Program-made: the position numbers and the translations under genes
DNA from: an uncultured Gammaproteobacteria bacterium
GTDB taxonomy: Bacteria > Patescibacteriota > Patescibacteriia > Magasanikbacterales > GWA2-37-8
Direction of reading: 5' to 3'
Assembly: GCA_964510495.1 (NCBI GenBank)
Contig: CAZECR010000001.1
Location: 3,781 to 67,780, forward strand
DNA length: 64,000 bases
Shown: positions 2,086 to 54,708 of the stretch, one piece after another
Layout of the letters: the number at the start of each line of letters is the position of its first letter
How positions within the stretch are numbered: the first letter of the stretch is position 1
Notes under the pieces: generated by a model
Told to the model about the DNA's origin: nothing
What the model saw: only the letters and a program-made list of their open reading frames with translations
The model's database searches: none

Positions 2086-2169
2086 AAAAATGTTCTCGTC
2101 GTTTAATGGATAGGACACTAGCCTCCGAAGCTGGTAATGCGCGTTCGATTCGCGCCGAGAACACGCGTA

Positions 2170-2193
2170 AGACAGGTCTAAGGCCTGTTTTTA
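2170..2193 (+). terminator. Weak intrinsic terminator after the FemAB gene
   Basis: Hairpin acagg-tctaagg-cctgt followed by tttttaattttt. Confidence 0.4.
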
Positions 2194-2279
2194 ATTTTTG
2201 TTTAAAAGGGTTGACAGATGAACGCAACTATGTCAGTATTTTTTTTACACAAAACCAGCAGAAGCTGGAAGGAGGAACC

Positions 2280-3164
2280 GTGAAACGTTTGTTGATGATG
2301 TTGACTGTGCTTTTCGCGCTCGGCGCTGTGCCTGCAGTGGCACAGACACCGCCGCCGGGTGCAGGGAGGTCGATCCTACTTCCCCCGAATGCGCCGACCA
2401 CTTCACCGGCTTGTCCGACGTGTACCGAGCAGGGGCGCACGGGCGTGCTCGAGGTGGGTAGGCGCTGGGAGGTACGCAGATCTGATTCGGCCAGAAAGGC
2501 GTATCGCGCCACATTCGGTCGGACCGTTTTCAACGATCCGACCCGGCCCGGGGCGTTAGTGCCGACAGCCCGGTGCAGTACCTGTGGGAACCTTCACCAG
2601 ATGCCCGGTGTCAAGGAGTTCAAAAAGGCACTGTCAGGTGATCAGCTTCGCGAACAGCAGCGTGTAGCCGCCGACAGGGCGGCAGAGGCAGGCGTAGGCC
2701 GTGATGGCCCTGCGTCTCAGGGCGGTCGCGTCCAAGCAGCCGACCCTCAACGAAACGCCTTCCGCCAGCGGGTTGCTGCAACGCGCGACCCGGCTCCGCC
2801 ACGCCTGCTTCTCGCTCCGCCCCCGGGTGGAGGTGGTGGTCAGGGTGGAAGCAGCAGCGGGCTCCTTGGTGGAGGCCCGAGCGCTGGCAGCGGAAACAAC
2901 CAGGGTAACGATGGCACGAGCCAGCGACGAGCCCTGGTTGCCTACCCCGGCTGCCTCGGCGATTTTGGAGGACCGGGTAGAAGATCCTGCACCGGCGCCG
3001 AAGCGCTGAGCCGGGCAGCGGCGCCGCTCACCGTTGGCGCTGCCGTGGTGGGTAGTCTTGCGACAGGTGGCACTGCACCCGCAGGCGCTCTTCTCCTGCG
3101 GGCGGCTGGCCAGCGCGCTGTCCAAGCCGGCGCCGTACTCGCCCCCGCGCTCGCCGGTCGCTAA
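2280..3164 (+). CDS. Secreted protein, paralog A, with a conserved C-terminal Cys-loop/Gly-Ala-rich module; GC-rich
   Basis: GTG start with RBS GGAGGAA. Signal peptide VKRLLMMLTVLFALGAVPAVAQ. The C-terminus YPGCLGDFGGPGRRSCTGAEALSRAAAPLTVGAAVV...LLRAAGQRAVQAG is shared with the 3480-4319 product. GC content is far above the flanks. Confidence 0.6.
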   Translation: MKRLLMMLTVLFALGAVPAVAQTPPPGAGRSILLPPNAPTTSPACPTCTEQGRTGVLEVGRRWEVRRSDSARKAYRATFGRTVFNDPTRPGALVPTARCSTCGNLHQMPGVKEFKKALSGDQLREQQRVAADRAAEAGVGRDGPASQGGRVQAADPQRNAFRQRVAATRDPAPPRLLLAPPPGGGGGQGGSSSGLLGGGPSAGSGNNQGNDGTSQRRALVAYPGCLGDFGGPGRRSCTGAEALSRAAAPLTVGAAVVGSLATGGTAPAGALLLRAAGQRAVQAGAVLAPALAGR

Positions 3165-3200
3165 CACGACCATCAGCAACTAACTTTTGTTCTTTACCAG

Positions 3201-3289
3201 CGGCCCTCTACAATTATCTCCCCAAGGTCGCCCTATTCTGTATTCAAGTGTCTTGAAACTAGAGTAGGGAGGGATTTGACTTTGGGGAG
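3201..3289. repeat. Conserved ~85-nt imperfect palindromic element, copy 1, downstream of paralog A
   Basis: ctccccaaggtcgccctattctgtattcaa...ttgaaactagagtagggagggatttgactttggggag. A second copy is at 4350-4437. Confidence 0.7.
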
Positions 3290-3335
3290 CGTAATGAGTT
3301 TATGGATTGCTTTGCTGAAAAAATACTACTTAATT

Positions 3336-3366
3336 AGCCCGGTATCTATCGGGCTTTTTATTTTTT
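3336..3366 (+). terminator. Intrinsic terminator
   Basis: agccc-ggtatctatc-gggct followed by ttttatttttt. Confidence 0.6.
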
Positions 3367-3479
3367 AAAATAGTGATTTAAGGTGCTTATAGTGTACATA
3401 GTGTTGACTTTTCTGTCTGGAGCTGCTAGCCTTGCTGCACAATTTTAACTCACTCGGTTCTGAGTGAGAGGTGGAAGAC

Positions 3480-4319
3480 ATGAAAAACATGTACATTGTT
3501 AGCGTGTTGCTGTTTTTGACGGCAATAGCCAACGCTCAGCCAAGGCCCAGGCTTGATCCAACCGCCGTTGATCGAGGTAGAATCAGGCTTGAGGGTCAAC
3601 GGCAGTTTCAGGCTGATACGGTAAAACAAGCAAGGAGGTTCGGCGAGTGGCAAGCGAAGATCGCCGATAAATATCCTGGCCAGCCTTTGCTCACACCGCG
3701 CGAATTACAGGTCGAGTCTCGTAAAGCGGCAAAACAGGATATTAGGGCACAAAAGTTACAGACTGCTAAGGCAAAGGGGTATGTGCCAGAGCTTTCGGAA
3801 ACGGATCAACTGGTGCGAGCTCTGGGTAAGATCCCTGAGGTCAGCGAGGTCTTTGATGAAGAGTTGTTGAGAGCAAAAGGTAAGCGCAAGCTTAAGACGA
3901 CTTTTCACCGGGACAGTCTCACACCTCTTCCTGTTCCTGCTGGCCGCCCTATCCTTCCACAGCTTGGTAGCTCGCCCCCTCCGTCGCGCCCTCTGGTGGC
4001 AACTCCTCTTCTGGGAGGACGTCCAGCGGTGGCTCCAAGTGCCCCCAACCTGGGTACCACGGATACTCGTCCTCGCGTGGGACCGTTCGTTTCCTACCCC
4101 AACTGCCTCGGCGACAGCGGCAATCCGCTCCGCAGATCCTGCGGCGCCGGTGAAGCGCTACGGAGGGCAGCAGCCCCGCTCACACTCGGTGCGGCTGTCG
4201 TGTCTGGTGTTGCTCCGGCAACAGCTGCCGGAGTTGGAACCGGAGTTCTGCTGCGAGCAGCTGGCCAGCGTGCTGCCCAAGCCGCACCCGCACTTGCTCC
4301 ACTGCTGGGAAGCCAGTAG
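3480..4319 (+). CDS. Secreted protein, paralog B, with the same C-terminal module; GC-rich
   Basis: RBS GAGGTGG. Signal peptide MKNMYIVSVLLFLTAIANAQ. The C-terminus YPNCLGDSGNPLRRSCGAGEALRRAAAPLTLGAAVV...LLRAAGQRAAQAA aligns with paralog A. Confidence 0.6.
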   Translation: MKNMYIVSVLLFLTAIANAQPRPRLDPTAVDRGRIRLEGQRQFQADTVKQARRFGEWQAKIADKYPGQPLLTPRELQVESRKAAKQDIRAQKLQTAKAKGYVPELSETDQLVRALGKIPEVSEVFDEELLRAKGKRKLKTTFHRDSLTPLPVPAGRPILPQLGSSPPPSRPLVATPLLGGRPAVAPSAPNLGTTDTRPRVGPFVSYPNCLGDSGNPLRRSCGAGEALRRAAAPLTLGAAVVSGVAPATAAGVGTGVLLRAAGQRAAQAAPALAPLLGSQ

Positions 4320-4349
4320 GCTCGGAAATAAATAGTCCTTGTCATTGGG

Positions 4350-4437
4350 TGGCCTACACTATTTATCTCCTCAAGGTCGCCCTATTCTGTATTCAATTTT
4401 TTTGAAGATAGAATAGGGAGGGACTGACTTTGAGGAG
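4350..4437. repeat. Conserved ~85-nt imperfect palindromic element, copy 2, downstream of paralog B
   Basis: ctcctcaaggtcgccctattctgtattcaa...gaagatagaatagggagggactgactttgaggag. The stem carries a compensatory change relative to copy 1 (ctccccaa/ttggggag versus ctcctcaa/ttgaggag). Confidence 0.7.
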
Positions 4438-4450
4438 AAAAAATAAAAAA

Positions 4451-4477
4451 CATCTCAGCAATCCGAGATGTTTTTTA
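4451..4477 (+). terminator. Intrinsic terminator
   Basis: catctc-agcaatcc-gagatg followed by tttttt. An A-tract lies upstream. Confidence 0.6.
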
Positions 4478-4548
4478 AAAGATTTTTATTATACTCGTCT
4501 TGACAGAAGATCTTTTTTAATCTAGTAGTACCCTATAGGAGGATGGAA

Positions 4549-5124
4549 ATGCAAAGCGAAGCTCAGGTTGACGCAGTAGTCACCACAAAGAAAACGTCTC
4601 AAAGACGTTTGCGAAAAGTAGAAAAACAAGGACAAGAATTTCGCAAACTATCGCGCCTTCCTCAAGGCGTCTTCTGTTCTGACTACCGGGGTCGCGAAGC
4701 GTGTTTTAAAGCGCTGCGTGATCAAACAAAGAAGCCTGCTGGCCTCGTGTACGTGGTTATGGGAACCGGTGCCGAGAATGCTTCGGTGGTGATCTGGAAT
4801 CACCGTGGTCTGCGATTGCTCGGTCAGTGGTCACTCAAAAGCAGCACGGCCAAAGGTGTGCTGTTCGAGGTGCTCCCTGCTTACACCCGGAACTGGAAGC
4901 TGGCTTGGATAAGCTACAACAAAGAGAAAGTTGTGAGTGGCTATTCAGTTGCTACAGCCGGTGGCATCAAGCGCTACTACCCGCTCAGCAGCGAGCAAAC
5001 TGGCGAAGTGGTGTCCGACAGCTGGATAGGGCTCAAGCCTGATAGAGCCCCCGGGTTCTGGGACGTCGAACGTGTGCTCCGGCCTTTTCGTCGCAGTTTT
5101 CCTCGCCCGCTCACCCCCGCCTAA
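4549..5124 (+). CDS. Hypothetical protein (GC-rich island)
   Basis: RBS TAGGAGG 6 nt upstream of ATG 4549. 191 aa with no recognisable motif. Composition matches the neighbouring GC-rich genes. Confidence 0.5.
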   Translation: MQSEAQVDAVVTTKKTSQRRLRKVEKQGQEFRKLSRLPQGVFCSDYRGREACFKALRDQTKKPAGLVYVVMGTGAENASVVIWNHRGLRLLGQWSLKSSTAKGVLFEVLPAYTRNWKLAWISYNKEKVVSGYSVATAGGIKRYYPLSSEQTGEVVSDSWIGLKPDRAPGFWDVERVLRPFRRSFPRPLTPA

Positions 5125-5162
5125 TTCACCCCCCCCGCCTTCCTTCCTTCTTCTCCTTTCCT

Positions 5163-5207
5163 AAAAAAAATCACCCCGGTATTTTCGGGGTGATTTTATT
5201 TTTTTAA
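5163..5207. terminator. Bidirectional intrinsic terminator between the convergent hypothetical gene and gyrA
   Basis: A-tract, hairpin tcaccccg-gtattttc-ggggtga, then T-tract. Confidence 0.6.
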
Positions 5208-10311: not shown

Positions 10312-12192
10312 GAGTGAGAATTGTGACTCAGGGGAATTTACCTTTGGTGCTTTGGGAGGTTTGCTTGTTTTTTGTGGAAGGTCGTCGTACTGGGTTTCTC
10401 CCAGAGCTTTGGATATTTCTTCAGGAGCCATAGTTATTGTTTTTTCTGATGCTCTGCGCTCAGATAAGTTTCTACGTAATTTGTCGATATTTTCTTGTGA
10501 CTTTTTAAGTGATTCAGCGGTATCTTTTAAATTTTGCGCTGCATCTTTCTTTAGATTTTCCTTTTCAGTTTCGTTGAGGGGTCTTGTGTAAAGCGGGAAT
10601 TCGCGAAGATGTCTGTCTAACTGATTTCTTCGTTCTTGTAATTCTTCACGCATGATTTTTTCAAATCCAGGGAAAGCCATAGTACGGATGTTGCTATAAG
10701 CAATCTGTCTGCTTAGGGTTAAGCCGGCGTCTTGAATGTTTAAACGCGATTCATTATCTAATTTTTCGCCCGGTGTTAATTCACCAAATTGCGGATTGTT
10801 TATCTGATCTTGCATTGCCTTTTTTTCACGCGCAATTTTATCGCTCAGCGTATCCCAGTTATGTTGTTTTTCAATCGGAATGTTCTCAGATAATTTTTGT
10901 AATTTTGCTTTTTGGACTCTTTGGAACAAGGCCCGTAAAATAGCCTCCAGGTTATCAGGGTGAACTTTAGTGGGATGTGCTTCAAGTGTGTCACGCATCC
11001 ATTCTATTTCGTTGGCAGTTAACCATAATTCTTCAGCAATTTTTTTTGTATCAGCTGTGCTGGTAACTACTTCTTTTAATTTCTGGTATTGTTCTTGGGT
11101 GATGTTATAGAAATTAATTGTGGCGTCAGGACTGTATACTCGGAATTCACCCATGAGCTGGTGTCTTTCCTGGTATGACTTTTGTTTTTCGGGGGTATTT
11201 AAAGTATCAACATCTGCCAATTCTGGTTTGTTAAAATGTTCTTGGATTTTAAGCTGTCTACAAAGTACGGTTAAGTGAGAAAGTTGGTCCGAATACGTTT
11301 CAGTAGGATATTTTTTCCGGTACTCCTGCCATTTTTTTTGCAGAATATTTGTATTTTCTTCGTTAAAAACACTAAAAGAATTATTTTTATTTCCACGTTC
11401 TAGTTGTCTTAGGAGCGCTTCAAGAGTTTCCTTTCCTAGATCAAGATCGTGTTGAATTTTATCGGCATTTTGTTTTCGTTTCCTTTTCTCGATAAAAATT
11501 TTATATATTTCCTCTAAATCAGCAAGGTCGTTACGCAAGCTGTATCCCTTTTGATGATTATTTTTCCATATTTCATGAAGTTGCTTTTGTTCGGTAGAAT
11601 TTAAAATTTTTTCTTCTTGAGGGGATAGCATTTCGCCTTGGGCGATATGAAGAATAGCAAGCATCGCTTCTGGGACAAGCAGGGTATGAACTTTTTTTGG
11701 ACCCAATGCTTCGGCTGTGCGATGCATCGATAATTCAGGCGGTTCTTGAGTGAGTAAATCGTATAGCTCATCCACCGTAGTTGCTCGCCAAAGAATATGT
11801 TTTTTTGGTAGAGCTTGCTCGGAAAGGGTTTCTGGTTTGGCTGGTTTGTAAGGCTGTGTTGCTGTCCTTTCTTTTTTTGGTTCTGAAAGTTCTATGGGCT
11901 GATTCTCTTTTTGAGTAATATGGTGATAGATACCTTTCAGTCTAATGATCTGGTCCGCTATACTGTCATCCGGAAATTGTTCGCGGTATTCTTCCCATTT
12001 TGTGATGAGCATCTCTTCGTCTTGGGCTCCGAGTGAGATGCACGCTCCCGGCATCCCTTCTCTACGTTCCAAATTTTTATGCAGCTCAAAAAGCTCCTTC
12101 CGGCTGAGGTCCCTAGGCTGCTGGGAGCTGTCGAGTCTATTTGTTGCCGCGTAGGCTTCAGAAGAATGCGCGCCACGTCGAAAAGTATGCAT
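10309..12192 (-). CDS. Hypothetical Lys/Glu-rich, predicted coiled-coil protein with internal repeats
   Basis: 627-aa ORF. It carries the repeated motif TKWEEYREQFPDDSIADQIIRLKG / KKWQEYRKKYPTETYSDQLSHLTVL. The start codon is uncertain (alternative MPGACIS...). Confidence 0.5.
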   Translation of the reverse strand: MHTFRRGAHSSEAYAATNRLDSSQQPRDLSRKELFELHKNLERREGMPGACISLGAQDEEMLITKWEEYREQFPDDSIADQIIRLKGIYHHITQKENQPIELSEPKKERTATQPYKPAKPETLSEQALPKKHILWRATTVDELYDLLTQEPPELSMHRTAEALGPKKVHTLLVPEAMLAILHIAQGEMLSPQEEKILNSTEQKQLHEIWKNNHQKGYSLRNDLADLEEIYKIFIEKRKRKQNADKIQHDLDLGKETLEALLRQLERGNKNNSFSVFNEENTNILQKKWQEYRKKYPTETYSDQLSHLTVLCRQLKIQEHFNKPELADVDTLNTPEKQKSYQERHQLMGEFRVYSPDATINFYNITQEQYQKLKEVVTSTADTKKIAEELWLTANEIEWMRDTLEAHPTKVHPDNLEAILRALFQRVQKAKLQKLSENIPIEKQHNWDTLSDKIAREKKAMQDQINNPQFGELTPGEKLDNESRLNIQDAGLTLSRQIAYSNIRTMAFPGFEKIMREELQERRNQLDRHLREFPLYTRPLNETEKENLKKDAAQNLKDTAESLKKSQENIDKLRRNLSERRASEKTITMAPEEISKALGETQYDDLPQKTSKPPKAPKVNSPESQFSL

Positions 12193-35105: not shown

Positions 35106-35149
35106 TCAGTTTTTAGGAGTAACGACAAAACCTTCCCGAAGGAAGGTTT

Positions 35150-35615
35150 TGCGCCATTATTATAAGCCGAATTTTGTTCCCATCTTGCGAGGGGCGATAA
35201 TCATTTCTCTGGTTCGGCCATTGCTGGCCGAATCTAGCGAGCGAACTTTTCGCGCCACTTTTACTGCGTCTCTCGGGCGCTCGTAACAGGCACGCTGCTC
35301 TTGCACCAGATAGGGTTTAGCACTGCTCTATTTCGCAATAGAGCGAGTATGGTAGCTTTGATCTCGAGAATCAGAACCTCCATACACTTTTCACCTTTTG
35401 TCCCGACGAAAGCCTGCCTATCAGCAGGTACACGGGATTAGTATTGTCTCTGTGCCACTGTCCCGCTCCGAAACTTTACAGCTCGGAGGGTGGGGGTTAC
35501 CCACTATCCTTGTCCATTCTTCAAAAACCGGCCAGGTGGCCTATTTTTGGATCAAATGGGGTGTTCGGACTTTCCTCTCCGGTTTAAGGGAGCGATTATC
35601 CATAATGGAAGCTGC
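35150..35615 (-). ncRNA. rnpB: RNase P RNA (bacterial type), masked in the ORF track by a spurious 76-aa ORF
   Basis: On the minus strand: GAGGAAAGTCCGAAC (5' P4; E. coli has GAGGAAAGUCCGGGC), GGTAACCCCCACCC, AAAAGGTGAAA, ...ACAAAATTCGGCTTAT (3' P4; E. coli has ACAGAACCCGGCUUAUCGG). The two P4 halves are in the correct order, about 400 nt apart. The 5' (ccattat) and 3' (ataatgg) ends can pair as P1. Boundaries are ±15 nt. Confidence 0.7.
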
Positions 35616-42170: not shown

Positions 42171-42920
42171 TTATAAGGCAATGTTTTTTTCGACTGGTTC
42201 TATGGGGTCGGCAAGTTCAATGGTAAGTTTTCTGACTCCCTCTTGAAAACGTGATTTAGCCGCTTCTTCAGTAATGGTAAGCTGCTTTGCGATTTCTTTC
42301 AGCTCTAGCCCCTCTTTTAAACGAAGGTCGATTACGGCCCTTACTTTTGGCGAAAGTGTGTTGAGCGCGGCATTGAGACGGTTTGTTTTATCTGACTCAT
42401 GGATTTTTTTAAAAAGAGAGGCCTCAGGGGTTTCTAAATGACTGGAGCTGCCCACAGCATGAATTCGATTACGTCGAGTTATGTTGACTATCTGACGCTG
42501 CTTTTTGGGTAAACGATGTATGCCAAACTTATTCTTATGTTCTAAAGTCGCGCTGCGTTCTTCAAGTATTTTTATGTCAGGCATTAATATTTCATTTCTT
42601 CGTTTAAGTGTGTTTTGTAAACGAAGTACTTTTTTTGCTGCATTAATGGCCACATCCACGCACCAGGTTTCAAATTTTGCCGGTCCATTAGGGTCGAATT
42701 TATTTTCTCGTAATGTTCGAGCAATACTTGCTAAAGCATCTTGGGTAGCTTCTTTACACTCTTCAGTTTTTAGAATTTTTCCGAAATTTCTTGTTATATA
42801 TAAATATATTCCGGTATAAAATTGTGGCGAAGCGAGCTTGTCCCACAAATTTTGTAGATCAGGATTGGTTTCGGTATGTACACTTTTATAGGGAGGCGCA
42901 CCTCTTTCGACTGCCATATG
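42171..42920 (-). CDS. Sigma-70 family RNA polymerase sigma factor (regions 2 and 4)
   Basis: The region 4 HTH ...LKEIAKQLTITEEAAKSRFQEGVRKL... and a region 2-like segment. The start is set at MAVERGAPP. Confidence 0.65.
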   Translation of the reverse strand, partial: HMAVERGAPPYKSVHTETNPDLQNLWDKLASPQFYTGIYLYITRNFGKILKTEECKEATQDALASIARTLRENKFDPNGPAKFETWCVDVAINAAKKVLRLQNTLKRRNEILMPDIKILEERSATLEHKNKFGIHRLPKKQRQIVNITRRNRIHAVGSSSHLETPEASLFKKIHESDKTNRLNAALNTLSPKVRAVIDLRLKEGLELKEIAKQLTITEEAAKSRFQEGVRKLTIELADPIEPVEKNIAL

Positions 42921-43107
42921 CAAAAATTTAAAAAATATTTGAGTAAGTATACTTGTCTTACACATTATGTAAAGAAGTAGAAATAAAAAATACTCTGTTC
43001 TAGAACAGAGTATTTTTTATTTCTACTCAACACCTCTAAAGATGGGTAGTGGAAAGTGTGGAGCGCTCCTTGCTAAAGGGAGCGCTCCACGAAGCGGTAT
43101 GGGGGGG

Positions 43108-45111
43108 TCAGAGAACGTGGAGTAGTCCGTAGATGCCGATGGTCAGGATACCAAGGGCCTCGCCGGCGATGATGCCTCCTCCGATGAGGGGGCTGGTGCT
43201 CATGTCGTCGAGACCCTCGTTTGCGGAGTCGGGCTCGTCAATATTGCTGCTCGTCGGCCGCGGGGTTGTTGTTGATTCCACGTGGAGTGGTTCGGCACTG
43301 TAGCCAGCGGAGATCACGTTGGTTTTGATCCCGCTGCCCTGACAGGTGTGGCAGGCGTCTTTTTCATCGGGCAGCTTGGAACGAGACTCGGCAGTGGCTT
43401 CGGCGCGCGCTTCGCTTTCGATGAAGCGAGAGTAGCTGGCGAGAACGCCGCCGATCATGTACCAGAGCGAGGTCGAGAGCTCGACGAAGCCACCGAAGGA
43501 CGAGGCGTAGGGTGAGGGCAGGATGATCGCGTCGATCATGAACCGGACGAATTTGGACGACCGGGTGCCTCGCTTCAGATACCGACGGTAGCGCTGGCTG
43601 AGGGCCAGGAGTTCCCGGAGGAGCTGGGTCACGAAGCCGATCGCGAGGCCGAGCAGCACCGCCTTTTTCGCGACCTCACGCTTTTGCATGATTTTCGCGA
43701 GTTTGGCGGGCGGTGCATTCTGGTCGATCGGGACGATGAAGGTGTCGATCGCCCCTTTCAGCTTGTACGTCATTGCTGACTGCCAAGCGGTGGGGCGTTC
43801 TTCCTTCTTCATCACGGTCTGATCTTTTTGCAGAATGGGGTAGGCCTTCATGAAGAACAGGGGGAGGAGGACGGACAGCGCCGCGGCCATGGGGATCCCC
43901 ATGACCTGGTACCAGAACTGAGTCCGCCGGGGCGTCGACAGGCGCTTGCCAGTCGACCTGTCCTGCTGCATATCGCCGCCGATGCTCATGTTGAGGAGCA
44001 TGATCGAGGCGCAGAGGAGGGCAGTGTCGACGTTCGTGAGCTTGGTCATGGCCATGACGTAGATGGCGAATACGGTCGCGCTCGAGACGGGGTTTGAATC
44101 CGTCATGCCGAGCGAGAGGCCGTTCACCAGGAGGAAGATGGCGCTGAGGGCAAGCGCGAGCGCGAGATACGCGATCGGCTGGTAGAGGAAGAAGTGTCCG
44201 ACGACGATGACCGCCACGGCCGAGCCCAGGATCCAAAGCGCGAGGAACGACGACTTGATCTTCTGCTTGTCCTCCTGTCGCAGGATCTCGAGACCGATGA
44301 TGCTCGTGGTCTCTTTGACCTTGCGGGTAACGAGCTTGTGGATGATGCCGAGGAGTTGTGCGATGAAGGCTCCGAGGATCATGCCGAGCATGATGATGAA
44401 GAAGACCTTGCGGAAGGGGTCGCCGGGCTCGAGCCACTCGATCTTGACTAGGTAGGGAACCAGTTGCTCGCCGGTAAGACCGAGCAGGAAGGCGGGTAGC
44501 GTGAGGGTGACGCCGAGGATCATGCCGACGCCGATCGTAGACGCGGATAGGCCGAGCGGCTCAAGGGCTGTCAGCTTCATGCTGGCGATACCCATGGCGT
44601 AGCCGAGGCCGGTGCCAGTCGCAAGCTTCGCGAGGGACTTGTTGAGCAGTAGCTTGTTGCACAGAGCGCGCAGGATGTTGGCCGCCCCAAGTCCCGAGGG
44701 GAACTTGAGGTCCATCTTGTCCACCAGGAGTGGCGTGTACGCCATCCCGACACCGATCCCGAACAGGGAGATGCAGGCGTGGAACAAGATGAGCGGCATG
44801 ATGGGAGTGGGAAGTCCGTACCAGACACGTACCTGGATGAGGATACCCATACCAGTCACCGAGGCGACGCTCGCCGCCAGGGTCTGGATGTAGTTACCCA
44901 TGTGCATGCCTTCCGGTCCGTACCGGTAGGTGACCACGCTGCCGAGGATGGAAGCGAAGATCTGCGCCCCGATCGCGAAGCCGATCGAGAAGTTCATGTA
45001 GAGCGCGGTCACCGCTGCGAGAGGTCCGAGGATGAGCATCGAGACGAGGATCAAGAGGATGTGGAGCTGGGGCGTGCCGACTGCCGGCCAACCAAACTTC
45101 GGGATTTTCAT
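43108..45111 (-). CDS. OPT-family oligopeptide transporter (GC-rich island)
   Basis: 668 aa from MKIPKFGW, with RBS GGAGGT. It has about 16 TM segments and is a paralog of the adjacent 45497-47506 product. GC content is far above the genome background. Confidence 0.7.
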   Translation of the reverse strand: MKIPKFGWPAVGTPQLHILLILVSMLILGPLAAVTALYMNFSIGFAIGAQIFASILGSVVTYRYGPEGMHMGNYIQTLAASVASVTGMGILIQVRVWYGLPTPIMPLILFHACISLFGIGVGMAYTPLLVDKMDLKFPSGLGAANILRALCNKLLLNKSLAKLATGTGLGYAMGIASMKLTALEPLGLSASTIGVGMILGVTLTLPAFLLGLTGEQLVPYLVKIEWLEPGDPFRKVFFIIMLGMILGAFIAQLLGIIHKLVTRKVKETTSIIGLEILRQEDKQKIKSSFLALWILGSAVAVIVVGHFFLYQPIAYLALALALSAIFLLVNGLSLGMTDSNPVSSATVFAIYVMAMTKLTNVDTALLCASIMLLNMSIGGDMQQDRSTGKRLSTPRRTQFWYQVMGIPMAAALSVLLPLFFMKAYPILQKDQTVMKKEERPTAWQSAMTYKLKGAIDTFIVPIDQNAPPAKLAKIMQKREVAKKAVLLGLAIGFVTQLLRELLALSQRYRRYLKRGTRSSKFVRFMIDAIILPSPYASSFGGFVELSTSLWYMIGGVLASYSRFIESEARAEATAESRSKLPDEKDACHTCQGSGIKTNVISAGYSAEPLHVESTTTPRPTSSNIDEPDSANEGLDDMSTSPLIGGGIIAGEALGILTIGIYGLLHVL

Positions 45112-45161
45112 GGCTGTACCTCCGCCATATGCTGTTGAGTTATCGGGGAGTTTGGTCTCAT

Positions 45162-45180
45162 CTATCAAAAAAATTGATAG
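45162..45180. promoter_or_regulatory. Perfect inverted repeat CTATCAA-N5-TTGATAG upstream of the first OPT gene (candidate operator)
   Basis: Read directly. It lies 50 bp upstream of the start codon. Confidence 0.35.
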
Positions 45181-45220
45181 GCGATTCCGTTTCTCACCGC
45201 TAACATTGTAAAAGGGCTTT

Positions 45221-45245
45221 GTTACAGTTGTATGAAAACTGTAAC
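45221..45245. promoter_or_regulatory. Perfect inverted repeat GTTACAGTT-N7-AACTGTAAC (candidate operator)
   Basis: Read directly, in the same intergenic region. Confidence 0.35.
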
Positions 45246-45321
45246 ACCTGAACGTAGCAAAAAATAGAGCAAATGTCAAGATAGGTTGTGGGTATAGTTT
45301 GATAGCATTGTAAAACAAAAA

Positions 45322-45348
45322 TTAAAAATCCCCTAGTGGGGATTTTTA
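45322..45348 (-). terminator. Intrinsic terminator downstream of the second OPT gene
   Basis: aaaaatcccc-tagt-ggggattttt. A U-tract follows on the minus strand. Confidence 0.55.
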
Positions 45349-45496
45349 AGGTACCTTCCTTCTAATTCCTATCTGGAACCACAAGGAAGGGGACAAGTGA
45401 ATACTTACCGTGTTCAAGAGGCAGACGCGGCCTCTTGTTGGCCAAGAGAATAACGCGATGAAGCGTATATTCTCAGGGTCACCTTCCGTGTGGCGG

Positions 45497-47506
45497 CTAG
45501 GCGGAGGCCTTGATCTCGCTGAAGAGGCGCTTCGCGGCTCCGCTCAGGTAGTGCATGAAGAGACCGGCGAGTGCGAGCATGAGCGCCATGGACGTCCAGG
45601 AGGCGATGTGATCGAGCCGAGCAGGGATCGCGGTCAGTGGAAGTGGTACCTTGAAGGCCACCGCACCCGATTGGAAGATACCGACCACGACTTCACCCGC
45701 GATGATCACCGCGGCTGGAGCTGCGATGAGCGCTTCGAGACCGGTCTCATAGGTGCGCCGCGGGGTGGGGAGCATGCTTTCTTCGAGGGTTTGCGTCTCT
45801 TCGTTGGCGTCGTCGACGCCCGGCACGATCGGCAGTTCGTTCTTCTTCACATTCAGCTTCTTCACTGCCCAGTAGGCGATGAGTCCACCGATTGCGATGG
45901 GGATGGTCGCCGAGATGCCGAGGTAGATGCCGACGGCGACAGCCATCGGCGAGAGGCGGAAGGGTGGATTCTTGCGAGTGCGGAGGAAGATGTCCGCTGC
46001 GGCGAGTAGGGCACCGAGGATCATGCCCTTCAGGATCATGTCGCCGAAGGGCAAGGGTTTCCCTTGAAGCCAGGCGAGGAATGCCTCGACCAGTTCCTTG
46101 AAGAGGCCGGCTTGAGGCGCCTCAAGACCCACCCCGATGCCCCGCGTGTGGTGCAGGCTCATGAGGAATGGGTGGAGGATAGGGGCGACACAGACGATGC
46201 TGAGGAGCATCGCCCACTGCTGGCGCCGCGGAGTCGCGCCGAGCATGTAACCGGTCTTGAGGTCCTGGCTCACCGAGCCGGCCGTCGAGGCGGCGCAGCA
46301 GATACATCCAGCGACAGCAAGGAGGATGACGTTCGCGGTCGCGGTGTTCGCAAGGAGCTGCTCACGGAAGATGCCGAGGATGCCGCAAGTTGCGATGAGA
46401 CCAGTGATAGTCATTCCGCTTGTTGGCGACGAGGTGCTGCCCACCTGGCCGACGATGTAGCTCGCGACGAGCGACAAGAGACTGCCGATGATGAACACGC
46501 CGAGAGCAGCTGTCAGGCTGAGGAGCAGAGAGTGCGAGATGTCGTAGAAGAGCCAGACGAAGCCGAGAGCACAGATGGTCAGAACACCGACCTGGTGGAT
46601 GGGTCGCATGTCGTCGTTCTTGGACGCCTGGGTCTTCTTCTGGTTCGTCTGCTGGCCCCGCGAGCGAAGCTTGCTCCGGACGATGCCGCCAACGATCCAG
46701 ACGAGTGAGTAGAAGGCGGCGACGACCATGACTCCGATGCCGAAGAATTTGGACATGCGCTTCAGGTCAGTTGCTGTGCTGAAGTCCGGGTGCCAGGCTG
46801 CATAGGCAGGCCACGAGATCAGACTGATCACGCCGCCTGACAGCATGAGGAGAGCTGCATTCGTGCCGATCAACATGCCGACAGCGAGGAGAGCGAGGGA
46901 GATGGTGCTCTTCAGGCTGAAGAGCTCCTGGGTCCTGCCGCCGGCGACTAGGCGCTTCACCGTGTACAGCGTGCTTTTCTCAGGCACGATACCCACGATG
47001 ACATTGAGAGCGCTCATGGCCGCTCCGATGAGGGTCGCGATCACGAGCGTCAACGTGTTGATCTTACCCGTCTTGGTGAGGACCTGGAGGAGGCGGGCGC
47101 AGGCACGCCCTTCTGGGTAGCGGAGCTCACGGTCACGCTCGACGATCAGGATCGGCCTGATCCAGATCATGGAGACAACGCCGAGACTGCCACCGAAAGC
47201 GGCGACACCAGCGACGTGGTACCAAGGGATCGAACCCTTGCTAGCTCCGATCAGGAGCGCTGGCATTGTGAAGATAACACCGGCGGAGATACTCTCGCCG
47301 GCGCTAGCGACGGTTTGCACTGTGTTGTGTTGGAGGAGGTTGCCTCGCCGCATGAAGATGAACGACAGCACCGCGGCGGGGATGCTGGCGCTCAAGGTCT
47401 GGCCAGCGCTGAGCCCCACGTACATCGTGCTCACGGCGAAGAACGCTGAGAGCACAACGCCGAAGAGCAGCTCACGCAGACCCCATTCTCTCTGAGATTG
47501 TTGCAT
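45497..47506 (-). CDS. OPT-family oligopeptide transporter, paralog 2 (GC-rich island)
   Basis: 669 aa. OPT motifs (...SAGESISAGVIFTMPALL...). Polytopic. Confidence 0.75.
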   Translation of the reverse strand: MQQSQREWGLRELLFGVVLSAFFAVSTMYVGLSAGQTLSASIPAAVLSFIFMRRGNLLQHNTVQTVASAGESISAGVIFTMPALLIGASKGSIPWYHVAGVAAFGGSLGVVSMIWIRPILIVERDRELRYPEGRACARLLQVLTKTGKINTLTLVIATLIGAAMSALNVIVGIVPEKSTLYTVKRLVAGGRTQELFSLKSTISLALLAVGMLIGTNAALLMLSGGVISLISWPAYAAWHPDFSTATDLKRMSKFFGIGVMVVAAFYSLVWIVGGIVRSKLRSRGQQTNQKKTQASKNDDMRPIHQVGVLTICALGFVWLFYDISHSLLLSLTAALGVFIIGSLLSLVASYIVGQVGSTSSPTSGMTITGLIATCGILGIFREQLLANTATANVILLAVAGCICCAASTAGSVSQDLKTGYMLGATPRRQQWAMLLSIVCVAPILHPFLMSLHHTRGIGVGLEAPQAGLFKELVEAFLAWLQGKPLPFGDMILKGMILGALLAAADIFLRTRKNPPFRLSPMAVAVGIYLGISATIPIAIGGLIAYWAVKKLNVKKNELPIVPGVDDANEETQTLEESMLPTPRRTYETGLEALIAAPAAVIIAGEVVVGIFQSGAVAFKVPLPLTAIPARLDHIASWTSMALMLALAGLFMHYLSGAAKRLFSEIKASA

Positions 47507-47585
47507 GGTTCCCTCGTTTTGCTTCGTTTTCGCTAGAATCGTTGTGACGGACCGTGCGCCAAATTTTTCTCCTATTATTTGTTTG

Positions 47586-47640
47586 CTAAGAGATCGAATA
47601 GGGATTATATAATTTATAAAAACACTATTCGATCTCTTAG
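47586..47640. repeat. 16-bp perfect inverted repeat with a 23-nt loop (ctaagagatcgaatag...ctattcgatctcttag)
   Basis: Read directly, in the AT-rich region upstream of the OPT operon. Confidence 0.6.
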
Positions 47641-47884: not shown

Positions 47885-48052
47885 ATGACGATGATCCGTA
47901 CCCTCAGTATCTTTGCTGCCCTCAAGCTCTTCTTCACGTTCACCTCGGCGTTCGCCGCCGACAACCTCGAGGCCAAGGCCAGGGCAAAGGCTGCTGCCGA
48001 GAAAGCCAAGGAGAGTGCTGCCGCGAAGGACAAAAAGAGCGACAAGAAGTAG
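47885..48052 (+). CDS. Small secreted Lys/Ala-rich peptide (55 aa; signal peptide plus ~30-aa mature peptide)
   Basis: Strong RBS AGGAGG 7 nt upstream. Signal peptide MTMIRTLSIFAALKLFFTFTSAFA, then ADNLEAKARAKAAAEKAKESAAAKDKKSDKK. It is below the ORF-track length cutoff. GC-rich. Confidence 0.45.
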   Translation: MTMIRTLSIFAALKLFFTFTSAFAADNLEAKARAKAAAEKAKESAAAKDKKSDKK

Positions 48053-48837: not shown

Positions 48838-48952
48838 AATTTCTCAAGTATTTTCAAAAAAATAACTAAGAAATGAAGGCCGGAAATTCGCTGGTGCGTT
48901 TTCCGACCTGGGCGCTGTTAGGTTGTGCGCCGAGACGGGCGTCGAGGCCCGG

Positions 48953-49201
48953 CTACTGCTTGTCGCCAGCCTTCCAGCTGGCGCCGGGGCTGCCGGAGCA
49001 CCCGCTGCCCTTCGTGCCGCTCGAGCCGGCCTTGTCGCCGGAGGACTTGGCGCCGCCATCGGGCTTGGCGGTCGTCGTGGTCGTGGTCTTGGGCTTGTCC
49101 GCGGCCTTGGCGGACTTGATGAAGCTGTCGCCGCCCACGCTGCCGGCGAGGCTGAGGGCCGCGATGAGACAGAGGGCGGAACGCTTGGTGCTGGTCATCA
49201 T
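48953..49201 (-). CDS. Small secreted, lipoprotein-like low-complexity protein (82 aa)
   Basis: RBS GGAAGGAGA. Signal peptide MMTSTKRSALCLIAALSLAGSVGG, then a Thr/Gly/Lys-rich tail. GC-rich. Confidence 0.4.
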   Translation of the reverse strand: MMTSTKRSALCLIAALSLAGSVGGDSFIKSAKAADKPKTTTTTTAKPDGGAKSSGDKAGSSGTKGSGCSGSPGASWKAGDKQ

Positions 49202-49373
49202 GGTGCTTCTCCTTCCAGAGGCTTATGTGCCCTTGGTTGTAGTAATGAAACTAACAAAAAAATACCCCTTCGTCAAGGTGGCAGGCTAGAACGGGTTTCG
49301 TCCTATGTGGTGGACTTGTAGCAGGAGTTGACGGTTCCGATTAAAAATGTTTAGCTGCCACTGGAGGTGCTCC

Positions 49374-53370: not shown

Positions 53371-53503
53371 ATTTAAAACGTTCTTTACTACATGTTTCTT
53401 GGCGGTGAAAAAGGCGTTCTGTGCCTTGTTTTCCGCTAAGAAACCCTTTGCTCTGATCCGCCGTGCGTCGGATACGCATGTTTCTGTTCCAGGAGTACAG
53501 CAT

Positions 53504-53947
53504 ATGGAGAAGTCCGCAGTTATCAATCGTCTCACGTCCGGCCTCGTGGTGCTCGCCACCATCCTCAGCCTCTCCGGCTGCGGACAGGGGTTCGAGCCGG
53601 TGCCGATTTACGACGATGAGATCGAGGACTATTACTACGCCGATCTGAGCGCCAGTGGGCTTATCCCTGAGCAGCCGGCATGGGTCGTGGTGCGTAATAT
53701 TCCGGAGGGCGGAAAGCTTGCTCTCCTGTATGGAAGTGACGCGAGCGATTCGCGTCCGCACCAGATCGGTTTTCTGGTCTGTCTGGCGAATGAGCAGGTT
53801 CACTCGCTCGCCACGGGGGAGATGGGGATGATGGCTTCGGAGCGGATGGAAGTGGGGAGCACCTACTACACAGGTGCAACGATGGTGAAGGTCATCTGCA
53901 CGGTGCAGATCGACGGCGCCTACCACGCAGCAGTTCGCAAGAAGTAG
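53504..53947 (+). CDS. Lipoprotein (147 aa), GC-rich
   Basis: RBS AGGAG. Signal peptide plus lipobox LSLSGC. Confidence 0.55.
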   Translation: MEKSAVINRLTSGLVVLATILSLSGCGQGFEPVPIYDDEIEDYYYADLSASGLIPEQPAWVVVRNIPEGGKLALLYGSDASDSRPHQIGFLVCLANEQVHSLATGEMGMMASERMEVGSTYYTGATMVKVICTVQIDGAYHAAVRKK

Positions 53948-54054
53948 CACTCGACCCCTTCCCGCATTCGAGTGTGTGTTTTCCCGGTCAGGCTGCGATT
54001 CAATTCGCGCCTGACCGATGTTCCTTAGTACTTTTAAAAAAAGTATTGAGGAGC

Positions 54055-54090
54055 AGAATAAAAAACTCCTGGTATCAGGAGTTTTTTTAT
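54055..54090. terminator. Bidirectional intrinsic terminator between convergent lipoprotein genes
   Basis: aaaaaa-actcctg-gtat-caggagt-ttttttt. Confidence 0.7.
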
Positions 54091-54156
54091 TTTTAGTATG
54101 AGGGAGGGGGGTGGAGCGAGAAGAGAAAATATTTCTCGCTCCACAGTAGCGGGGGG

Positions 54157-54621
54157 CTACTTGGCGCTGGCGTCAAGAACCAGCTGGATTTTGGTGCGCG
54201 CCTGGCCGCCGAGCTGGGTTGGTCCGATGCCGGCAATACGTTCTACGCCGGTGACGAACTGGCTGTTCTCGCTCAGGAACGCTTCGGCGGTGATGTCGAA
54301 TGTGAGCAGGCAGGCGAGCGGCGGGACGTGAATTGTCCAGTACGCCGGTAGCACACACTTCGGTGCCCCGAGCTTGAGGTCGGCCATCTTGATGGTCTTA
54401 CCGTCGCAATCAATGGCGATGGCTGTTCCGTTCATGCTGTCGCACTGTTCGAAGCGGTTCGGCGCGCTGTTCGGTGTCCGAAGCTCGATCGCGAGGCAGG
54501 CCTCGCTTACGCCGCACATCGAGAACGGATCGCTTGGTGGTGCCGCAGCAGGGGTGGCGAAGCCGCACCCACCAATGAGGAGACTGATCAAAGTGGTCGC
54601 AATATCAATGGTTCGGGACAT
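54157..54621 (-). CDS. Lipoprotein (154 aa), GC-rich
   Basis: RBS AGGAGA. Signal peptide plus lipobox LLIGGCG. Cys-containing mature domain. Confidence 0.55.
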   Translation of the reverse strand: MSRTIDIATTLISLLIGGCGFATPAAAPPSDPFSMCGVSEACLAIELRTPNSAPNRFEQCDSMNGTAIAIDCDGKTIKMADLKLGAPKCVLPAYWTIHVPPLACLLTFDITAEAFLSENSQFVTGVERIAGIGPTQLGGQARTKIQLVLDASAK

Positions 54622-54708
54622 GGTGTTCTCCTGCGTGAGTTGCTTTGACCCTACCAGGAACCTTATTGCTTTTCAAGTGCCAGTTTTTTGCTATACTACC
54701 TCTACTCT

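Follow-up and report, generated by a model that had tools for sequence, protein, structure and literature searches.

Two adjacent paralogous secreted-protein genes in a 64-kb stretch of Patescibacteria DNA (hereafter the window, meaning the whole stretch that was analysed) are each followed by a long imperfect palindrome, and the question that this locus raises is whether these palindromes are a functional RNA signal, a DNA-level or mobile element, or what a gene duplication left behind. The source genome has a GC content of ~46%, the closest named relatives of its FemAB protein belong to Candidatus Magasanikbacteria, and the window represents about 5-6% of a genome of roughly 1 Mb. A Logan contig of 2071 nt from SRR12762304 (L010) corresponds to approximately positions 902-2972 of the window and represents an independent short-read assembly of the source organism; it breaks inside the C-terminal module that is common to both paralogs, as a repeat would predict. 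Because an identical NusB was also found in sample ERR8482639 (L011), the organism occurs in two or more data sets.

The gene order rnc-nusB-L32-FemAB-tRNA-Arg-[slot]-gyrA is conserved in three related genomes, and the tRNA terminator and the TTGAC promoter that follows it are conserved across the relatives as well, but the content of the slot differs. In the window, the slot between tRNA-Arg(CCG) and gyrA holds three genes (ORF1, ORF2 and ORF3), each with its own transcription signals. As its content differs among the relatives, the slot is variable, and the paralogs with their hairpins were added to it specifically in this lineage. The features of the locus are as follows:

2092 to 2164, + strand: tRNA-Arg(CCG), the left edge of the variable slot
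2165 to 5203: the slot in the window, with three genes
2280 to 3164, + strand: paralog 1 (ORF1), 294 aa from the GTG at 2280, deposited as 352 aa from the ATG at 2106
2862 to 3161, + strand: shared C-terminal coding module of paralog 1, with its counterpart at 4011-4316 in paralog 2
3480 to 4319, + strand: paralog 2 (ORF2, identical to P0001), 279 aa, with a signal peptide and the C-terminal module found in paralog 1
4543 to 5124, + strand: ORF3, the third slot gene, without a hairpin and with a homolog in the matching slot of relative L005
5204 to 7669, - strand: gyrA, whose 3′ end bounds the slot
4023 to 4251 of relative L008: the slot, empty
11085 to 11962 of relative L005: the slot, with the ORF3 homolog
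11090 to 11717 of relative L003: the slot, with an unrelated 137-aa gene

Right after the complete tRNA-Arg(CCG) of L005, positions 11100-11165 contain the apparent 3′ part of a second, L008-type tRNA-Arg (gcttgcgattgaggttcgattcctcatggaggcacca), which may be the scar of an integration at the tRNA. A C/T-rich tract (cacccccccc...ttccttcc) lies directly 3′ of the ORF3 stop codon (5125-5162), and a similar tract follows the L005 homolog (11855-11890). At the other side of the tRNA, the FemAB-family gene contains arrays of the heptamer AAGGAAC at 1292-1321 and 1885-1914 (4.3 copies each) that are absent from the relatives fetched; because the gain or loss of one 7-nt unit shifts the frame, phase variation of this gene is conceivable.

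Paralog 1 (67% GC) starts with a signal peptide, continues with a linker rich in Pro and Gly and ends in a conserved C-terminal module that contains Cys and a hydrophobic segment, whereas the GC content of ORF2 is 58%. In both proteins, the C-terminal segment is moderately hydrophobic and is followed by arginines. The N-terminal halves are unrelated, and the C-terminal module of ~100 aa is shared at 57% amino acid identity. Nucleotide identity within this module is ~70% at codon positions 1 and 2 and 44% at position 3, and therefore the + strand frame is truly coding. A phmmer search against 1.84 billion representatives returned only ORF1 and ORF2 for this protein family, a homolog search with paralog 2 matched only itself, and a profile search with the C-terminal module gave no further members because Ala-rich words swamped the candidates. 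Pfam, NCBIfam and PHROGs assigned no family to the three slot genes, and the searches made yielded no homolog with which the conservation of the hairpin could be tested.

The ORF1 frame stays open for 67 codons past its TAA, through the first hairpin to the terminator T-run (3165-3365); because ORF2 meets its next stop after 3 codons, this open frame is probably due to chance. A coding reading of the hairpin itself was rejected: a frame is open in both copies, yet the substitutions are mostly non-synonymous, and in copy 2 the frame ends within the element.

Patches of 58-72% GC in the 46% GC genome occur at 2251-3250, 3851-4350, 43051-47550, 48851-49250 and 53401-54650 and include two OPT-family transporters and small secreted-protein genes (47885-48052, + strand, and 48953-49201, - strand). 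It is possible that these patches are of foreign origin or have a special composition; none of the transporter and small secreted-protein genes in them carries a copy of the hairpin.

We folded each copy alone and together, and we built a covariance model (R1) from the two copies. The elements of the two 3′ regions are as follows:

3201 to 3217, + strand: weakly conserved 5′ flank of copy 1 (GGCC...ACA..TTA), with its counterpart at 4350-4366 in the global alignment
3218 to 3289, + strand: hairpin copy 1, -40.6 kcal/mol, z -4.96; model R1 scores 107 bits on the + strand and 29 on the - strand
3336 to 3365, + strand: intrinsic terminator of transcription unit 1, an 8-bp stem plus T-run, 46 nt 3′ of hairpin 1
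4367 to 4437, + strand: hairpin copy 2, -40.6 kcal/mol, z -6.43; model R1 scores 105 bits on the + strand and 43 on the - strand
4444 to 4487, + strand: bidirectional intrinsic terminator of transcription unit 2, a 13-15-bp stem with an A-run before and a T-run after it, ~6 nt 3′ of hairpin 2

The element is 72 nt long and has helix segments of 13 + 10 + 5 bp. From base to tip, copy 1 comprises a lower stem of 13 bp, a 3′-side bulge, a middle stem of 10 bp, an internal loop (2x2) and an apical stem of 5-6 bp that closes a variable loop, and copy 2 has the same architecture. The base of the stem reads CTCC(C/T)CAAGG / GACTTTG(G/A)GGAG, and the core 24-mer AAGGTCGCCCTATTCTGTATTCAA occurs exactly twice in the 64 kb (0 occurrences expected). 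The bulge comprises 7 nt in copy 1 (AGGGATT, or AGGGAUU in RNA; 3270-3276) and 6 nt in copy 2 (AGGGAC; 4419-4424), with AGGGA common to both; the apical loop is not conserved. When each copy was folded alone as + strand RNA, 1 of 200 shuffled sequences folded as well as native copy 1 and 0 of 200 as well as native copy 2, and both hairpins kept their own structure when the whole 3′ UTR was folded. The RNAalifold consensus of the two copies comprises 28 pairs, none of which is broken, and confirms a compensatory difference in the outer stem (C3222-G3285 in copy 1 versus U4371-A4433 in copy 2); a second pair changes from U.G to U-A. The sequence-only reading had described two copies at these places that fold as hairpins, with a compensatory outer-stem change, and each of these points is borne out. 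Its boundaries hold for the paired parts (3218-3289 and 4367-4437), while the additional 5′ bases that it had included (3201-3217 and 4350-4366) belong to the weakly conserved flank, across which identity climbs from ~0.5 to 0.77 in the global alignment.

The + strand is the sense strand for both paralogs, and it is also the strand that folds better: as RNA, the - strand of both copies is ~10 kcal/mol worse because of the G.U pairs, three of which are present in both copies and a fourth in copy 1. DNA energy parameters gave a strand bias in the same direction (top strand -18.7/-22.4 versus bottom strand -14.3/-17.7 kcal/mol), the G.T positions of the top strand becoming A.C mismatches on the other strand.

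ORF1 and ORF2 each have their own TTGAC -35 box, ribosome-binding site and terminator, and the hairpin lies between the stop codon and the terminator. Counted from the last base of the stop codon, the distance to the hairpin is about 53 nt for ORF1 and about 47 nt for ORF2 (44-53 nt overall); a recoding signal was rejected because 47-53 nt from the stop codon is too distant. The hairpins are not intrinsic (Rho-independent) terminators, because a U-tract directly 3′ of either one is absent (copy 1 is followed by CGTAATGAG and copy 2 by an A-run) and a consensus terminator scan called separate sites downstream (3336-3355 and 4444-4477) and did not call the hairpins themselves. This is what had been concluded from the letters alone, but the distance of 40-50 nt that had been given between hairpin and terminator applies to copy 1 (46 nt, 3336) and not to copy 2 (~6 nt, 4444).

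All repeats common to the two units, the hairpin included, are collinear at a spacing of 1149-1155 nt, and in the global alignment faint similarity extends across the T-run of the terminator and as far as the next -35 box. Therefore, the hairpin arose with the tandem duplication of the whole unit, and its collinearity with the duplicated coding module argues for co-duplication rather than independent insertion; together with the sense-strand bias, this upholds the earlier suggestion of a structured element that was duplicated with its gene. The duplication itself is old, judging from the low identity at near-neutral sites. Identity between the two units is distributed as follows:

Four-fold degenerate sites of the shared coding module: 19/44 identical
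Spacer from stop codon to hairpin: 25/53 identical
Whole hairpin: 62/72 identical
Paired bases of the hairpin: 53/56 identical
Unpaired bases of the hairpin: 9/16 identical

The probability of the identity of the whole hairpin at the rate of the four-fold sites is 5 × 10⁻¹⁴. Paired bases are better conserved than unpaired bases of the hairpin (Fisher p = 6 × 10⁻⁴) and than four-fold sites (p = 1 × 10⁻⁸), whereas no difference separates the unpaired bases from four-fold sites (p = 0.4): the loops change at the pace of neutral DNA, and the stems are frozen. The 5′ arm of the hairpin is the best-kept 30-nt stretch in the whole duplicated unit (93%), and all 3 stem substitutions preserve pairing (one swap of C-G to U-A and one change of U.G to U-A). 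With 53 of the 56 stem positions identical, conservation of sequence is as strong as that of pairing; the earlier claim of selection on structure rather than on sequence, resting on one compensatory pair and one wobble change, was overstated.

A functionless residue of the tandem duplication is what two adjacent copies, collinear with the duplicated coding sequence, might suggest at first, and the sequence-only reading had named equally conserved flanks as its mark, but the stem identity far above that of the neutral sites and the spacer, with changes that shun paired bases and preserve pairing, makes this explanation very improbable. What is left is purifying selection or a very local gene conversion or copying.

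The best reading of these data is that the hairpin has probably been held by purifying selection after the tandem gene duplication. We propose, with a probability of roughly 45%, that it is a determinant of mRNA 3′-end stability or processing, i.e., a cis-acting 3′-UTR stem-loop of two tandemly duplicated mRNAs, and the sense-strand bias, the position between stop codon and terminator, the neutral loops beside frozen stems and the co-inheritance with the gene all fit such an element. Transcription of each paralog would start at a promoter of its own, pass the stop codon and the 72-nt element and end at the intrinsic terminator, and in the mRNA the element would fold as a 28-bp helix broken by the conserved 3′-side AGGGA bulge. 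It could then form a second barrier to 3′-to-5′ exonucleases that shields the coding region, or it could be a processing site for a double-strand-specific (RNase III-type) enzyme, in which case the terminator would be removed and a defined 3′ end left. We lean slightly towards the protective role. The position is that of a retroregulator, in sense orientation between the stop codon and the terminator of the predicted transcript, and the 28 pairs reach the length of an RNase III substrate (about two helical turns of dsRNA), so that the predicted helix with its asymmetric interruption is long enough for RNase III and is a candidate substrate. Because the RNase III gene (rnc) adjoins nusB in all 3 of 3 relatives, RNase III is expected in the source lineage. 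Its transcription, its action on mRNA stability or processing and the nuclease or protein that would read it are inferred.

Several points speak against this reading. The covariation consists of one compensatory pair and one wobble change, and one template-switch event suffices to create such a pair within an inverted repeat (PMC8794818) and could have done so here. The identity of the stems exceeds structural need and could reflect recent gene conversion over short tracts, a protein that reads the sequence or a role at the level of DNA; together with the AGGGA bulge, it is a hint of a sequence-specific reader or of recent homogenisation. Moreover, the terminator hairpin already guards the 3′ end, and a second barrier is not obviously needed.

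The alternative that survives best is that the identity of the two copies reflects recent copying, either as a small palindromic repeat (REP-, Correia- or MITE-like) or through short-tract gene conversion that has recently homogenised the segment. Besides being palindromic, the element rises sharply in identity above both flanks, as expected for a recently copied unit, and its GC content (39-48%) matches the host genome and not the 67% GC genes upstream. However, the position relative to the stop codon is alike in both copies and collinear with the coding module, and the clustering of the differences in unpaired bases is not predicted by recent copying alone. The flanks (ATTA|...|CGTAA in copy 1 and TTTA|...|AAAAA in copy 2) have no visible target-site duplication, and integrase, recombinase, reverse transcriptase, transposase and RAYT genes were not detected by Pfam among the ~47 ORFs of the window, two results that speak against a MITE/REP-type element.

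A third copy was not found in the 64-kb window, either with mismatch-tolerant patterns or with model R1 (filters on and off), the next-best matches of the model being unrelated generic hairpins of <=17 bits; nor did model R1 detect any in the syntenic regions taken from three relatives (L003-L009, ~90 kb in total). Searches of species-representative genomes, JGI metagenomes and a viral collection with the pattern GGTCGCCCTA-N15-45-TAGGGAGGGA gave no true copy, the chance matches being one in L001 (within coding sequence) and one in L002, neither of which has the stem. Arm-specific patterns matched 51 times in IMG/VR viral contigs and all matches were rejected by model R1; blastn against phage and plasmid records gave no match. 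These scans of public collections required exact matches, and the source contig is absent from the collections, as is evident from the window's own two exact matches not being returned. The hairpins had no match in Rfam 15 at the gathering threshold, and in E-value mode they matched only miRNA precursor models as generic hairpins (16-25 bits versus thresholds of 47-119). The Rfam/Infernal scan suggested by the sequence-only reading thus matched no family, and its option of a dispersed REP or MITE gains no support from the sequence searched, with 2 copies in 64 kb. Further copies are possible, as ~6% of the genome is in view; taking both sides together, we consider recent copying unlikely, though deserving of some weight.

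The window contains other palindromes. A perfect, AT-rich palindrome of 52 bp (26-nt arms, no spacer) at 42976-43027 is flanked by a sigma-70-family gene (42171-42965, - strand) and an OPT transporter gene (43108-45318, - strand). An imperfect, intergenic palindrome at 47586-47640 (27-nt arms, 89% complementary) lies upstream of a small GC-rich secreted-protein gene and is the best non-self match of model R1, at only 16.8 bits. The class A RNase P RNA (35147-35611, - strand) is 465 nt long versus 367 positions in the model and thus has sizeable insertions.

A more far-reaching idea, which we regard as a long shot, is that the mRNAs of a single family of secreted, anchored proteins are handled by a dedicated factor of the Patescibacteria that recognises the hairpin, or that the hairpin is the first REP-like mobile hairpin in a CPR genome. 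If such a factor existed, for example for regulated processing or localised translation of these mRNAs, it would explain the frozen stem sequence and the AGGGA bulge beside saturated neutral sites.

It is rather improbable that the palindrome acts at the DNA level, as a recombination or protein-binding site through which gene units are shuffled or inserted in the slot by tRNA-Arg. The slot from tRNA-Arg to gyrA does differ in gene content in every relative examined, unrelated N-terminal halves are joined to a common 3′ module plus hairpin, and the stem sequence is conserved beyond pairing alone. The better fold and the bulge are nevertheless on the top (sense) strand, with A.C mismatches opposite its G.T positions; RYYYAAC/GTTRRRY core sites are lacking, Pfam detected neither an integrase nor a recombinase in the 64 kb, the units have separate promoters and terminators, and ORF3 and the slot genes of L003 and L005 have no hairpin.

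About equally improbable is a small RNA derived from the 3′ UTR, in which hairpin and terminator would be released together and act in trans, e.g., via the exposed purine-rich AGGGA bulge. A conserved structured segment directly 5′ of a terminator is the usual layout of 3′-UTR-derived sRNAs, and the bulge is kept in both copies, but nearly every conserved base is hidden inside the helix, conservation does not extend to the apical loop, and the terminators and the distances to them differ between the copies. Complementarity to the leaders of the three local genes was not above chance, and no target can be proposed. We also rejected a DGR target (variable region plus IMH plus hairpin), because the window contains no reverse transcriptase and the differences between the C-terminal repeats are not adenine-specific.

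Returning to the cis-acting 3′-UTR stem-loop, its interest lies in the contrast between stems that are 95% identical and the randomised synonymous sites beside them, which makes it a clean candidate for a functional 3′-UTR signal. Almost nothing is known about post-transcriptional control in bacteria of the Candidate Phyla Radiation, which cannot grow alone. The reach of the finding is small: it concerns one uncultured genome with two copies, both beside members of an orphan gene family.

Known systems resemble the element to different degrees. The analogues of a DNA-level site are the integron attC site and the conserved 3′ repeat of antigenic-variation loci. Like attC, the hairpin is imperfectly palindromic; the two are of comparable length, and both end each of several neighbouring gene units on the 3′ side, where gene content varies between relatives. 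Unlike attC, it has no R″ (RYYYAAC) or R′ (GTTRRRY) core sequence at the stem base and no integrase, its units have their own promoters and terminators, and the top strand folds better, whereas the recombinogenic strand of attC is the bottom one, with its extrahelical bases; an integron attC site was rejected for these reasons.

3′ hairpins and REP sequences stabilise the upstream mRNA (PMC7509114), and the reference list of PMC13001229 cites Wong and Chang 1986 (PMC323487) for a stabiliser at the 3′ end of Bacillus thuringiensis cry, termed a 'positive retroregulator'. As with the cry retroregulator and the REP stabilisers of E. coli operons, an inverted repeat follows the stop codon of a gene whose product is exported or abundant, belongs to the mRNA (here the predicted one) and is proposed to block 3′-to-5′ exonucleases. 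In those systems, the hairpin doubles as the terminator or forms a multicopy repeat of 35-40 nt. The present helix, in contrast, is much longer (28 bp) and precedes a terminator that is distinct from it, and only two copies are known.

3′-UTR elements and palindromic repeats can also act via RNase III, as in the S. aureus icaR 3′ UTR (PMC3868564) and the Neisseria Correia elements (PMC2649163). Unlike the icaR 3′ UTR, the hairpin has no complementarity to the ribosome-binding region of its own gene: duplex energies between leader and element were within the range of shuffled sequences (z -1.4 to +1.8), and an icaR-like pairing of 5′ and 3′ UTR was rejected. Unlike Correia elements, it was not seen dispersed and has no terminal repeats with a TA duplication. 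Lambda sib retroregulation and the intercistronic R sites of phage T7 are further elements that are read by RNase III, and how stable the upstream mRNA is depends on whether such a 3′ element is cleaved or bound. With all of these (lambda sib, T7, icaR, Correia), the present element shares a long, here predicted, dsRNA with an internal loop or bulge 3′ of the coding region, and with T7-type sites it shares, in architecture only and as a predicted fold, the succession of lower stem, asymmetric interruption and upper stem. The hairpin has no relative in Rfam or the databases searched, and it belongs to a familiar kind, the structured 3′-UTR hairpin.
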